Virus record (IMG/VR): IMGVR_UViG_3300029953_000001
Length of the DNA: 64,000 nucleotides
Direction: 5' to 3' (one strand)
Source of the DNA: a virus
Under the pieces are notes generated by a model, which saw only the letters and a program-made list of their open reading frames with translations, was not told the origin of the DNA and searched no databases. A program made the position numbers and the translations under genes. Positions 52,892 through 56,050 of this stretch are shown here, piece by piece (position 1 is the stretch's first letter; every line of letters begins with the position of its first letter).

Positions 52892-52922
52892 AGTATACAC
52901 AGTCGGAAGCGTTTCTGGACAA
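52892..52922 (-). promoter_or_regulatory. Sigma70-like promoter, family copy A: TTGTCC-N19-TATACT
   Basis: Minus strand TTGTCCAGAAACGCTTCCGACTGTGTATACT. Shares a 35-nt core with copies at 55883..55913 and 56020..56050. Confidence 0.5.
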
Positions 52923-52959
52923 CTTTTTTCTTTTATCCCATATAGCGGGTGTTTAGCCG

Positions 52960-53157
52960 CTAATCGTCCCCCATATGGGACATTGCCAGCGGAACCGGGC
53001 ACTCGCTGTCATGCTCCATCTTAGATACCGGCTCGTCCCAGTACACCGAGGCCCCGCAGTGGTTGCACTCGTTGTATGTGTTCATGCCGTGAGTAACGTC
53101 GTGAGAGTATGCGGTACGGAGTACCGCTTCTGCGAGTCGCTTAGTTGCTTCCATCAC
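52960..53157 (-). CDS. Small Cys/His protein (65 aa)
   Basis: CNHCG...ECP. Confidence 0.35.
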   Translation of the reverse strand: MMEATKRLAEAVLRTAYSHDVTHGMNTYNECNHCGASVYWDEPVSKMEHDSECPVPLAMSHMGDD

Positions 53158-53162
53158 CTATG

Positions 53163-53429
53163 TCATAACTGCCTCCATTCAACTACCGGGATACGGTCGA
53201 TGTGTTGCGTGCCCATCGACTCGTCCCAGTAGAAGGTTCCATCTTCTTCGTCTGGATTCGTGGTAACCATCCAGTAGTTCGGCGGGTCGTACTCACTGTG
53301 AAAGCTGTACTCAGCCTTACAGATTCGTCCGTCCGCGAGTTTGACTTCCAATACTTCAAAGCCGTAGGTCTCTTGGTAGATGTAGCCGATGACCGGGGCT
53401 TCGCTGATAGAGTTCCATTCACTCTTCAT
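53163..53429 (-). CDS. Hypothetical protein (88 aa)
   Basis: Complete ORF. Confidence 0.35.
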   Translation of the reverse strand: MKSEWNSISEAPVIGYIYQETYGFEVLEVKLADGRICKAEYSFHSEYDPPNYWMVTTNPDEEDGTFYWDESMGTQHIDRIPVVEWRQL

Positions 53430-53877
53430 ACTTCGCCTTCAGACGCTCGTACTCGTTACGGTCATGCTCTTCCCTCGCCGCTACAGCACGGGCAGCTTCT
53501 GCTTCCTTCCTAAGCTTCTCAGCAGCAGCCGCAGCCGCCTTGGCTTCCGCTTCGGTGCGGTTGGCGATGGTCTTAGCCTCATCCAGAATTGCCTGAGCAT
53601 GTTCCTGAACTGACTCGTCCCAGTACCCGCCTTCCTTGCCGTCCTGTTCGACCCAAACCCCAGCGGGTTCCTTACCGTCAATGAGAAGGGTGATGTCGTA
53701 GTCGGCTTCACGGGACTCATGCTTCTCGTTGGCCTTGTGCTTGTCTACGATAAACTGGACAGCCTCGCCCCGGTCATCGGTGCAAAGCATGTCGAATTCG
53801 GATGAGTAGGAAGCCATAAAGCATCCACGGCAGTAGTCGGTGTTGCTCGGCTTGTAAGCGATAATCGTGTAGTTCAT
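53419..53877 (-). CDS. Hypothetical protein (152 aa) with Ala-rich coiled-coil tail ending EYERLKAKYEE
   Basis: C-terminal tail shared with the next gene. Confidence 0.4.
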   Translation of the reverse strand: MNYTIIAYKPSNTDYCRGCFMASYSSEFDMLCTDDRGEAVQFIVDKHKANEKHESREADYDITLLIDGKEPAGVWVEQDGKEGGYWDESVQEHAQAILDEAKTIANRTEAEAKAAAAAAEKLRKEAEAARAVAAREEHDRNEYERLKAKYEE

Positions 53878-54302
53878 TTTTGGTCTCCTTCAAACTTCGC
53901 CTTCAGTTCCTCGTACTTGTCGCGTTCCCACTGAGCCTGACGTTCGGTCTCAGCAGCTTCCTCAGCCATCCGTGCAGCACGACGCTGACGCTGGGCCTCA
54001 GCACGTTCCTCCTGCTTCTCGCGGATGAACTCGTCTAAGTTGTCGATACGGTCGAGCGGGATGTCGATGGAGACGTAGTAATACTCTCCACCACCGACGT
54101 ACTGAGAGCCACTGAGACGGATGCCCGTCTTGGTCATCTCAAACCCGGTGTACTCGTAATCCTTGGCCGGGTTGAAGCCCTCCCTGCGGGTGTTGTCATC
54201 GTGGATGACGTGTGCATCCTGAAGCTTCAAGAACATCGCCTTGGCTACGTGGTAGCACTGGTTGTCGATTGCCTCATGCTGTTGGAAAAGTGACTTGCTC
54301 AT
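53874..54302 (-). CDS. Hypothetical protein (142 aa) with coiled-coil tail ending YEELKAKFEGDQK
   Basis: Paralogous C-terminus to 53419..53877. Confidence 0.4.
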   Translation of the reverse strand: MSKSLFQQHEAIDNQCYHVAKAMFLKLQDAHVIHDDNTRREGFNPAKDYEYTGFEMTKTGIRLSGSQYVGGGEYYYVSIDIPLDRIDNLDEFIREKQEERAEAQRQRRAARMAEEAAETERQAQWERDKYEELKAKFEGDQK

Positions 54303-54637
54303 ATGCCCTCGCCTTCTGTGTTGGTCTGAAACGGGTAGGTTGCGTCCGTGCCCATGAGAGCACCATTAGCGTCTTCGCAGGAGACCCACTTCGCCCACGT
54401 GGATGGGAGACTGTAGTCCTCAGGATTAGCGTCGGGGTAGCGTTTGAGGAGCTTGGCAATTGCCTCGTTCCGCACAACCACCTTAGACGGGCGGTTGCCT
54501 TCGTGAGACCATACCTTGTAGCCCCACGAGTAGTAGATGGGCAGGTTGCAGTGCATACAAGCGAGGTTAGGCTGCGACATCGGAGACCTCCAGAGTTTCC
54601 TGAGGCGTCCAAAGGCGGTAGACTCCCATGGCTCCAC
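54299..54637 (-). CDS. Hypothetical protein (112 aa)
   Basis: Complete ORF overlapping the upstream gene end. Confidence 0.35.
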   Translation of the reverse strand: MEPWESTAFGRLRKLWRSPMSQPNLACMHCNLPIYYSWGYKVWSHEGNRPSKVVVRNEAIAKLLKRYPDANPEDYSLPSTWAKWVSCEDANGALMGTDATYPFQTNTEGEGI

Positions 54638-54920
54638 GAAGCTTCTTATTGGTAATGGGGTACGTCGCGACTGCGGTCAGGCCGAGGTCGAAGTCAGGCT
54701 CATAGAAAGCCTCACATTCAATGCCATAACGCTGGAGTCGTGCGATGACGGCTTCAAGAGCGTCCTTGTCAGGAACTCCGATGAGCACGAGCGAAGGGGT
54801 TTCGCTGCACCCGTCAAGCCGGGATGCCATCTCGTAGGTGGCGTGGTTAGACTGAACAATAGTTTGGGCAAGGCTGAGGTCCTGCCGGACGAAGAGGTAG
54901 TAGTGATTGACCTAGTGCAT
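54567..54920 (-). CDS. PTH2-like peptidyl-tRNA hydrolase; conserved N-terminus is reachable only by reading through an in-frame TAG at codon 3 (plus-strand cta at 54912..54914)
   Basis: RBS TAGGAGAATACAT then ATG(54918-54920)-CAC-TAG. Then VNHYYLFVRQDLSLAQTIVQSNHATYE (PTH2 VR.DL...AQ..HA motif), then MASRLDGC...SLVLIGVPDKDALEAVIARLQRYGIECEAFYEPDFDLGLTAVATYPI. No other start codon lies between the TAG and the conserved block. Confidence 0.5.
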
Positions 54921-55092
54921 ATGTATTCTCCTAATTGGTTATTGTAGCGTGAAACTTCTATTTATGCAACCAAATTCTTTGCATCTTCTATGACCTTGTA
55001 CCGTGATTCCGACCCAATGCTCACAGACCACGGGGCTGTCTCTGCCGGTGTGATGCTGCGGCTCGAAAAGGAGGTTCCCGAGCGATGTAATA

Positions 55093-55876
55093 TTTGTTCT
55101 CATTACGAGAACAATTGTACTTAATATGACAACACAGCGCTGGGGCCGGCTTTTTGAATGCAAAGGGCTGTGTCGCCCAGTTTGATTCCTCTCGTTCGAC
55201 CGGGCCATTGGCGTGGCGCAAACCCCCTGCGATTGAGATTCCGGGCAGTAAAAGAACCGGCGTTATATTTGGTTTGAGGAGAACCAAAACCCGCCCGGAA
55301 TGTGGTGCGAAGCCGCAAGGTTTCCCTTGTCCCTGAACACCGTTGTCCATGGCCGGTGCCAGTGCAGCGTCTATGCTGCTCGTTCGCATAACTTGTGCTG
55401 GCGGCTGTCGGACTTGACCCTTATTCCAATCTTCCCTGTCGGGCTCCATGGGGGCGGTTCCTATCATGACCAGCAACTTCGGCTGTGGACGTTCGATACA
55501 GGCTCCCGGACGCGACCGGGACGACCGTTGGCAAACCCTTACGTCCGCTACCCACAGCTAAACATTGGAGCAAAGTGAATTTCTTCACTGAGGAGTCCCT
55601 GCCTCCGCCGACTAATGGCGGGTGTGTCAACTATCACCGCCGAACATTGGGCACCATGCTCTCGCACAGTAGGACTCTTACCCGCCGCTTATAAACTCCC
55701 AAGGCTATGTGCAACATTGACAGTCCTACGCAAGAGCGGTAGGCTAACGATTCCGCCGACTTACTGCCAGACTAGCATCAAAGCCGAAGTGAACTCCGGG
55801 TATATGAATGCTAGACCACGGCTTGTAGGTTACCCTACTGGTCATTGCCTTTCGTGCGGGTCAGTCTCCCGCTCAT
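55093..55876 (-). ncRNA. Candidate large noncoding RNA (about 0.8 kb), promoter-driven, ORF-poor, GC-rich, ending at a strong hairpin
   Basis: Two tandem copies of the conserved promoter point into it. All six frames are broken by stops. Hairpin TTGTTCTC-ATTAC-GAGAACAA at 55093-55113 sits at the far end. Flanked by tRNA-type genes. Confidence 0.3.
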
Positions 55877-55882
55877 GTACAT

Positions 55883-55913
55883 AGTATACTGTAGTCTTTC
55901 CGTTTCTGAACAA
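55883..55913 (-). promoter_or_regulatory. Promoter family copy C: TTGTTC-N19-TATACT
   Basis: Minus strand TTGTTCAGAAACGGAAAGACTACAGTATACT. Confidence 0.45.
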
Positions 55914-56019
55914 CTATTTTTCACAATCCCACTTTTTTCTTTCGTGGATACTTCCGTCCTATGGTTCTTGTGCCGGGAGGTCTTGCCACGGGCACTTCAT
56001 CAAGCTGAGCCATACCCTT

Positions 56020-56050
56020 AGTATACCAGCCGGTACACGTTTCTGGACAA
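56020..56050 (-). promoter_or_regulatory. Promoter family copy B: TTGTCC-N19-TATACT
   Basis: Minus strand TTGTCCAGAAACGTGTACCGGCTGGTATACT. Confidence 0.45.

Follow-up and report, generated by a model that had tools for sequence, protein, structure and literature searches.

What is the function of a short sequence that recurs, nearly unchanged, on one strand of a giant phage genome? The question is raised by viral record IMGVR_UViG_3300029953_000001, a 64-kb stretch of DNA (hereafter the window) that is part of a myophage genome of ~431 kb. The longest contig with window proteins measures 431,749 bp, and all negative results from the window given below apply to its 64 kb. An original prediction, made from the letters alone, proposed that three copies of the element form a promoter family controlled by a dedicated regulator or a phage sigma factor. 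Our analysis suggests that the elements are indeed bipartite promoters, probably of the sigma-70-family type, which a giant (~430 kb) soil/peat myophage would most plausibly present to host RNA polymerase holoenzyme. A phage-specific factor would not be needed to read them.

The claimed recurrence was borne out. A pattern search for GTTGTYCAGAAACG-N11-GTATACT with up to three mismatches allowed returned exactly three matches in the window, all on the minus strand and all with zero mismatches, and none in 100 dinucleotide shuffles. The element spans 32 nucleotides (nt), not the 35 first given, and its ends had been placed 1 nt short. Its 11-nt centre is completely different from copy to copy, and the flanks are dissimilar except for an A-rich tract immediately upstream of each copy. 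The 13-nt box alone does not form a graded family, with 27 matches at ≤3 mismatches against 32 expected and only three of them exact. The proposed motif search beyond the three sites added no further exact copies in the window; it did uncover a fourth, diverged member that the original prediction had missed, TTTGTTCAAAACGT-N11-GTATACT, whose geometry is unchanged and which likewise has an A-tract ahead of it and a discriminator of the GTGGGT type. The near-identical copies are here called P1, P2 and P3, and the diverged one P4.

All four copies share the hexamer TATACT (a 5/6 match to the −10 consensus TATAAT), an invariant G before it and an A 7 nt after it. Every copy has the orientation of the genes, occupies an intergenic position or a gene end, and is preceded by an A-tract. 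TATACT itself is not over-represented, occurring 11 times on the minus strand against ~13 expected, and six of these 11 fall in the ~14% of the sequence that is non-coding or at the start of an open reading frame (ORF). The copies do not form an array: start-to-start spacings are 137 and 2991 nt, and the further copy is ~15 kb off. Ten near-identical metagenome contigs of the same phage carry P1, P2 and P3 unchanged. Near P1, a variant strain (L009) differs at 52929 in the A-tract, at 52903 in the N11 centre and at 52889 in the discriminator, with no change in the box or the −10. In P1 and P2, and not in P3 or P4, TGGGAT precedes the box by exactly 12 nt (52935-52940 and 55926-55931, minus strand); this may be the trace of a duplication or an additional upstream site.

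Comparison with relatives places the element in a broader architecture. The window has no DNA similarity to INPHARED phages in either near or distant mode, and the nearest cultured relative is the Tunturiibacter (Acidobacteriota) phage Tunturi_5, with 49% identity in the tail sheath. More distantly related loci were reached via two neighbouring proteins (L011, L015, L020 and L024-L031). The window's own motif is absent from these distant loci; an element of the same architecture stands at the same place instead. In that architecture, an A-tract precedes a box resembling T(T/A)G(A/C)CA, with AA(A) after it; the box stands 18 nt ahead of TAT(A/T)(A/C)T, the last base of this spacer is G, and after a further 6 nt comes a purine. 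A scan of 201 kb of non-redundant clade sequence (at least 4/6 of the box T[TA]G[AC]CA, a spacer of 18 nt with G as its last base, TAT[AT][AC]T) found 25 sites on the gene strand versus 2 on the opposite strand; in shuffled sequence the count averaged 3.8 and reached 10 at most. The upstream A-tract is present at nearly all of these sites, as is a purine 7 nt beyond the −10.

Positional conservation is clearest at two RNAs that would be transcribed from P1 and P2. Homologues of the smaller RNA are preceded by a promoter-like element at the same distance in L011 and L027, and those of the larger RNA in L011, L015, L024, L027 and L030; in each case the box sequence differs from that of the window. 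Before the small-RNA homologue, L011 and L027 both read TGTAGCCAA..GTATACT, the full elements being AAAATTGTAGCCAA..CCGTATACT in L011 and TTGTAGCCAAA..CCGTATACT in L027. Before the large-RNA homologue, the elements are TGTAGCTAAAAAG..GGTATACT (L011), TGTGGCTAAAC..GGTATTAT (L015), TGTAGCCAAAT..GTATACT (L027) and CTAGCCAAAA..GTATTAT (L030). The P2 orthologue of L024/L025 is TCGACA-18-TATACT, followed by a 5′ end, ATGAGCGGGAGACTGACC, identical to the window's. At the position equivalent to P3, after the small membrane gene, L011 carries TTGACT-19-TATACT ahead of a 120-amino-acid (aa) gene with leaderless geometry. Overall, the relatives' −10 is TATACT or TATTAT, their boxes at 18 nt are TCGACA, TTGACA, TAGACA or TAGCCA, and the clade-wide box takes the form TAGCCAAA, TCGACAAA or TTGACAGAAA. 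The window box is a lineage-specific variant of this clade-wide box. That the copies within one genome are so nearly identical is probably due to selection for strong promoters, to duplication or to both.

The exact pattern is rare elsewhere. Scans of IMG/VR and of 185,579 bacterial and archaeal species genomes gave no matches, and a scan of JGI metagenome contigs returned nothing but this phage's own P1 site (L022) and one unrelated AT-rich contig, taken as chance. The conserved cores of both RNAs, large and small, likewise gave no matches in the collections scanned, from which this phage clade is absent.

What does P1 drive? The original prediction placed it upstream of a small membrane protein gene. 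That unit is indeed present, and the immediate product is not simply a membrane-protein mRNA; it would be a conserved, structured RNA of ~115 nt, with a 16-bp closing stem and three hairpins. The predicted fold has a minimum free energy of −57.1 kcal/mol (z = −3.56). Homologues occur in L011/L028 and L027 (nhmmer E down to 1.8e-19; L011 16575-16700, L027 5001-5130), and compensatory changes affect 6 of 37 consensus pairs among only three sequences. Hairpin 1 is nearly invariant (GAUGUGUGnACAGCAGCCCCGUAAAUCC...), and no Rfam family was matched. The gene that follows varies by lineage: a membrane protein gene in the window, another gene in L011 and, directly downstream in L027, a tRNA with a CUA anticodon. 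Because the downstream gene changes between lineages, this RNA behaves like an independent RNA gene and not like a leader.

P2 and P3 were both said to lie upstream of a region without ORFs. P2 would indeed start that region, which is itself a conserved RNA; P3, 137 nt upstream of P2 and with its box abutting the stop codon of a 72-aa membrane gene, would start a 30-codon leaderless ORF and read into P2. The region of ~900 nt contains no credible ORF under any stop-codon reassignment. An alternative genetic code was rejected on the lack of any long frame with TAG, TGA or TAA as sense, and a 151-codon frame (55021-55476) was rejected for a stop and a frameshift in L015 and for mostly non-synonymous changes. 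Nucleotide conservation is patchy yet strong, with L015, L024, L027, L011 and L030 (E down to 1e-20), where the corresponding loci span 700-1400 nt (L011 12400-13120, L015 8320-9300, L024 9070-10000, L027 1124-2520, L030 7899-9200). Four lineages share, almost without change, a core of ~130 nt (AAGCGGCGGGUAAGAG...GGUGCCCAAUGUU...GUCGGCGGAGGCAGGGACUCC...GCUCCAAUGUUU). Of 38 predicted pairs, 10 are compensatory, and the fold z score of the region is −2.2 on the minus strand versus −1.2 on the plus strand. A GCGGG...CCCGC hairpin stands just after the P2-type start in the window, L024, L011 and L030. No Rfam match was found at E ≤ 10. The ORF-less region is thus predicted to be a conserved, modular structured RNA. 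The structures of the P1 and P2 products begin within ~5 nt of the predicted start.

Several details of the large RNA stand apart from this argument. The strain variant L002 has a 31-nt deletion (55002-55032) near the 3′ end of the RNA region and is otherwise almost identical over 4.5 kb. The RNA contains CAAUGUU three times. It also has an 11-mer, CAATGTTGCAC (window ~55719), in common with the tag-coding region of the phage's transfer-messenger RNA (tmRNA).

Leaderless ORFs provide a second view of the start site. At offsets of 0-15 nt past GTAT[AT][AC]T in these phages, an ATG that starts an ORF of ≥60 aa occurs only at 5, 6 and 8. Four long ORFs have their ATG exactly 6 nt after the −10: window 37669 (122 aa, behind P4), L011 11966 (120 aa), L015 6594 (~120 aa) and L027 442 (82 aa). 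Homology supports two of them, the L011 ORF with a 58% homologue in L027 and the L015 ORF with a 77% homologue in L020. No Shine-Dalgarno sequence was found before any of the four. Because long ORFs open with ATG exactly there, transcription would start at the seventh base after the −10, and the geometry points to leaderless mRNAs. The original proposal that the elements are promoters of minus-strand units is upheld by these ATGs and by the promoter-like elements at the same distance before homologous RNAs. ATGs at offset 5 after GTATTAT were rejected as family members: they lack the box and the A-tract and have Shine-Dalgarno-like sequences upstream.

The short frames behind P2 and P3 call for caution. 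P3 is followed by an ATG and 30 codons, and P2 likewise by an ATG and 13 codons with the same geometry. The 30-codon ORF (MAQLDEVPVARPPGTRTIGRKYPRKKKVGL) had no homologue and may be a leaderless mini-ORF or a remnant, its coding status being uncertain. An ATG at the start site alone is not proof of translation, because the tmRNA precursor starts with AUGGUUG behind its own promoter in three lineages. Gene finders miss the leaderless genes of the clade or call them by chance; for example, the ~120-aa ORF of L015 (6594-6953) was left uncalled despite its homologue in L020. The L011 gene at 11966-12328 is another of these leaderless genes.

The repeat, its statistics, its conserved position, the covariation of the RNAs and the leaderless geometry are seen directly in the sequences, whereas promoter activity, exact start sites and the choice of sigma factor are inferred. 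On the minus strand, the anatomy would run as follows: an A-rich, UP-element-like tract, the −35-region box GTTGTYCAGAAACG, a variable spacer, a G at −13, TATACT, a 6-nt discriminator and a start at A. P1 would give rise to the ~115-nt structured RNA and P2 to the ~900-nt one, and P3 and P4 to transcripts whose first three bases are ATG.

Predicted promoters, products and comparison promoters in the window (positions are those of the 64-kb stretch)
Feature	Position	Strand	Remarks
P1 core promoter (predicted): GTTGTCCAGAAACG-N11-G-TATACT	52892..52923	-	exact pattern match; predicted start A 52885
UP-element-like A-rich tract of P1 (CTATATGGGATAAAAGAAAAAA)	52924..52945	-	same feature upstream of all family members and of relatives' promoters
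P1 product: ~115-nt structured RNA (predicted)	52769..52885	-	16-bp closing stem and three hairpins
P2 core promoter (predicted): GTTGTTCAGAAACG-N11-G-TATACT	55883..55914	-	exact pattern match; predicted start A 55876
P2 product: ~900-nt noncoding RNA (predicted)	54990..55876	-	ends ahead of TTGCAT-17-TACAAT promoter 54941-54969
P3 core promoter (predicted): GTTGTCCAGAAACG-N11-G-TATACT	56020..56051	-	exact pattern match; predicted start is the A of ATG, 56013
30-codon ORF (MAQLDEVPVARPPGTRTIGRKYPRKKKVGL)	55921..56013	-	ATG exactly 6 nt after P3 −10
P4, diverged member (predicted): TTTGTTCAAAACGT-N11-G-TATACT, discriminator GTGGGT, then ATG	37676..37707	-	
122-aa ORF at predicted start of P4 (leaderless)	37301..37669	-	ATG 6 nt after TATACT, without Shine-Dalgarno sequence
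Comparison promoter outside the family: TTGCAT-16-TACTAT, serves two-piece tmRNA	56673..56700	-	start A 56666; RNA starts AUGGUUG
Comparison promoter outside the family: TTGCAT-17-TACAAT, serves peptidyl-tRNA-hydrolase-like (Pth2-like) gene	54941..54969	-	kept as TTGCAG-17-TACACT in L011

Which polymerase would read such promoters? The −35 hexamer can be set in two registers, TGTYCA at 18 nt or TTGTYC at 19 nt. The latter, given in the original prediction, survives as an alternative register; alignment of the clade on the −10 gives 18 nt and TGTYCA. The columns common to all lineages in this alignment are a T at −36, Y-A at −32/−31 and an A-rich segment from −30 to −28, and the upstream TTGT shifts by 2 nt between lineages. 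A simple promoter scanner called P2 alone, as TTCAGA-16-TATACT. A single host holoenzyme of the sigma-70 type is the simplest reader, because orthologous promoters have a near-consensus −35 (TCGACA-18-TATACT in L024, TTGACA-18-TATTAT in L031, and TTGACT-19-TATACT). One holoenzyme is also favoured because the tmRNA promoter has the form TTGCAx-16/17 in some lineages and TAGCCA-18 in another: the AUGGUUG start of the RNA lies behind TTGCAG-17-TATTAT in L020 and behind TAGCCA-18-TATTAT in L030. A further reason is that searches of the window ORFs turned up neither a sigma factor nor an RNA polymerase domain, nor, with PHROGs for the ten ORFs nearest the elements and with Pfam, a MotA/AsiA-like protein. 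The geometry of promoters for extracytoplasmic-function (ECF) sigma factors is also a misfit. A 212-aa ORF (36045-36683) with a helix-turn-helix-looking C-terminus was considered as a sigma factor and rejected, since it has neither a Pfam sigma domain nor similarity to gp211 of Tunturi_5.

Several points weigh against a host sigma-70 reading. The match to TTGACA is only 3/6 for TGTYCA at 18 nt and 3-4/6 for TTGTYC at 19 nt, and spacers of 18-19 nt are long for an Escherichia coli-type sigma-70. Within the genome, the box is conserved over 14 nt, which exceeds the need of a −35 hexamer. Between lineages it is replaced block-wise while the −10 stays constant, a pattern that a co-evolving phage factor could also give. 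Tunturi_5 is annotated with two sigma factors, of which gp211 is ECF-type by Pfam (Sigma70_r2 and r4_2 domains), and the negative result for sigma factor and RNA polymerase genes covers 64 kb of ~431 kb.

One alternative is a phage-specific promoter class, in which the 14-nt box GTTGTYCAGAAACG would be bound by a phage sigma factor or by a sigma-appropriating activator, like the MotA box of T4, and P1-P4 would form a dedicated regulon made up of noncoding RNAs and leaderless genes. The original prediction suggested a regulator or sigma factor of this kind, and we consider the alternative unlikely, though the strongest of those considered. Identity of the box over 13-14 nt in three copies speaks for it, as do the two Tunturi_5 sigma factors and the uniform boxes of other lineages (TGTAGCCAAA in L011, L015, L020, L027 and L030) with their constant −10; canonical-type TTGCAT-16/17-TAC(T/A)AT promoters are also present in the window, so that two classes may coexist. 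However, the near-consensus sigma-70 −35 occupies the same position in orthologous promoters of the same RNA, the same gene is driven by both box types in different lineages, and neither the window nor the flanks of the relatives yielded a sigma, MotA/AsiA-like or RNA polymerase gene. An ECF factor fits poorly, with GAAAC just 12 nt from GTA, and the architecture was not found in the first 200 kb of Tunturi_5, which was for that reason rejected as a model for it. In its most specific form, also doubtful and slightly more so, the box would not be a −35 at all; it would be the site of a phage sigma factor or MotA-like appropriator that co-evolves with it, with a regulon consisting mainly of the two undescribed structured RNAs and leaderless mRNAs.

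The elements might instead not be promoters. They could be a dispersed repeat (a recombination or duplication scar, or a cassette boundary), repressor operators, replication iterons or an RNA motif in read-through transcripts, and their small number of three or four, their clustering in a region of RNA genes and the TGGGAT common to P1 and P2, which hints at duplication, are compatible with this. We regard it as improbable: bipartite conservation around a free 11-nt centre, strict strand bias, the A-tract and the fixed 6 nt to ATGs or to 5′ structures of RNAs all fit promoters. Iterons are disfavoured by the spacings (137 and 2991 nt) and by the absence of a replication gene next to the copies, an RNA-level motif by the lack of a common fold among the four elements, and the ends of a mobile element by the unrelated flanks; the motif is also absent from the species genomes and IMG/VR as scanned above. 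Least probable is transcription by a polymerase of the phage itself, whether single-subunit (T7-like) or multisubunit (phiKZ/AR9-like). T7-type promoters show ~20 nt of continuous conservation running into the start site, whereas here the 11-nt centre and the discriminator vary freely. The −10 matches TATAAT at 5 of 6 positions, relatives have TTGACA boxes, and the window yielded no RNA polymerase domain. It is true that the phage is giant and that some jumbo phages transcribe without host polymerase (PMC7598289, PMC5312081). However, the late consensus of AR9, AACA-N6-TA/G, is unlike the motif (PMC5312081), and neither it nor the AT-rich early motifs are bipartite −35/−10 promoters (PMC5312081, PMC7598289). 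The resemblance to phiKZ/AR9 promoters is thus limited to a giant genome and a phage-specific consensus, while the window elements are bipartite and come without phage RNA polymerase genes found there.

Promoters of the host-read type have well-studied counterparts in other phages. T4 early promoters are strong, are read by host sigma-70 and have a phage-specific, unusually uniform extended consensus, A-rich upstream tracts and many near-identical copies. The window elements are similar in having a uniform extended consensus around a standard −35/−10, A-rich tracts and a location in a region of small genes and RNA genes. They differ in their unrelated sequences, the 18-19-nt spacer, the poor TTGACA match and the several transcripts that would be leaderless or noncoding. 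In T4 middle promoters, a MotA box centred near −30 is combined with a sigma-70 −10, and sigma is appropriated by MotA/AsiA. Here too a conserved box, with CCA(G/A)AA at ~−33 to −28, takes the place of a good −35 upstream of a normal −10; however, its sequence differs, no MotA/AsiA homologue was seen in the window, and relatives have true TTGACA-like hexamers at the same place.

Two further systems bear comparison. In T4-type phages, promoter-early-stem-loop (PeSL) cassettes place copies of an early promoter at the borders of gene cassettes. The window likewise has repeated promoter sequences at cassette boundaries, and the P3/P2 tandem looks like the loss of a gene that lies between the equivalent promoters of L011. 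Unlike PeSL cassettes, the window elements show no conserved terminator stem-loop, and recombination at them would be hypothetical. Promoters of ECF sigma factors, which have an AAC-containing −35, 16-17 nt and a CGT-containing −10, are relevant because gp211 of Tunturi_5 is an ECF-type sigma factor. GAAAC does occur in the window box, but it lies 12 nt from GTATACT, TATACT follows downstream, and there is no CGT element.

The surrounding genes agree with a giant myophage. The window encodes a tail sheath of 1180 aa, a UvrD helicase and NAMPT, and nearly all of its genes lie on the minus strand. In the direction of transcription, the region begins with a two-piece tmRNA (56680-56280), the 72-aa membrane gene, P3, 137 nt, P2 and the ~900 nt without an ORF. 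There follow TTGCAT-17-TACAAT, the peptidyl-tRNA-hydrolase-like gene, several small genes, a DUF3222 gene and P1, and after P1 the structured ~115-nt RNA, a 64-aa membrane gene, an amber-suppressor tRNA and a cluster of tRNAs. The two-piece (permuted) phage tmRNA (56280-56680, minus strand) encodes the tag ANSNVALPIAA and is syntenic in L011, L015, L020 and L030.

The peptidyl-tRNA-hydrolase-like gene (54567-54920, minus strand) has an unusual start. Its ribosome-binding site is followed by ATG CAC TAG GTC..., with an in-frame amber at codon 3 that is kept in six lineages (the window, L011/L028, L015, L020, L026 and L027). The alignment of its homologues begins at the residues directly past the amber. 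The phage also encodes an amber suppressor tRNA with a CUA anticodon (52229-52302, minus strand). Because of the conserved codon-3 amber and this tRNA, the gene may be translated only in the presence of the phage suppressor. Ahead of the suppressor tRNA, 9 nt from its first base, lies an extra −10-like sequence, GATATACT (52312-52319, minus strand), which an A follows at 6 nt; it is without an upstream box or A-tract and is possibly a weak promoter.

A separate feature of the window is its composition. Restriction sites are very strongly avoided: 24 of 64 palindromic hexamers (e.g. CCCGGG, CTGCAG, GGATCC, GTCGAC and AGATCT) are absent from the 64 kb, where ~15 of each would be expected. GTATAC, which is part of the promoter element, was considered as an avoided or otherwise special restriction site and rejected; its 15 occurrences against ~12 expected are not unusual.

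The elements are of an ordinary kind, a lineage-specific variant of a promoter type found across the clade, and their main value is for annotation, in pointing to the RNAs that they would drive. They yield a promoter model for this uncultured clade of giant phages from soil and peat: an A-tract, then a box resembling T(T/A)G(A/C)CA, 18 nt, G-TAT(A/T)(A/C)T, 6 nt and the start site. This model predicts transcript 5′ ends and exposes leaderless genes that gene callers mis-start or miss. It also delimits two conserved noncoding RNAs without an Rfam family, of ~115 and ~900 nt, both previously undescribed.

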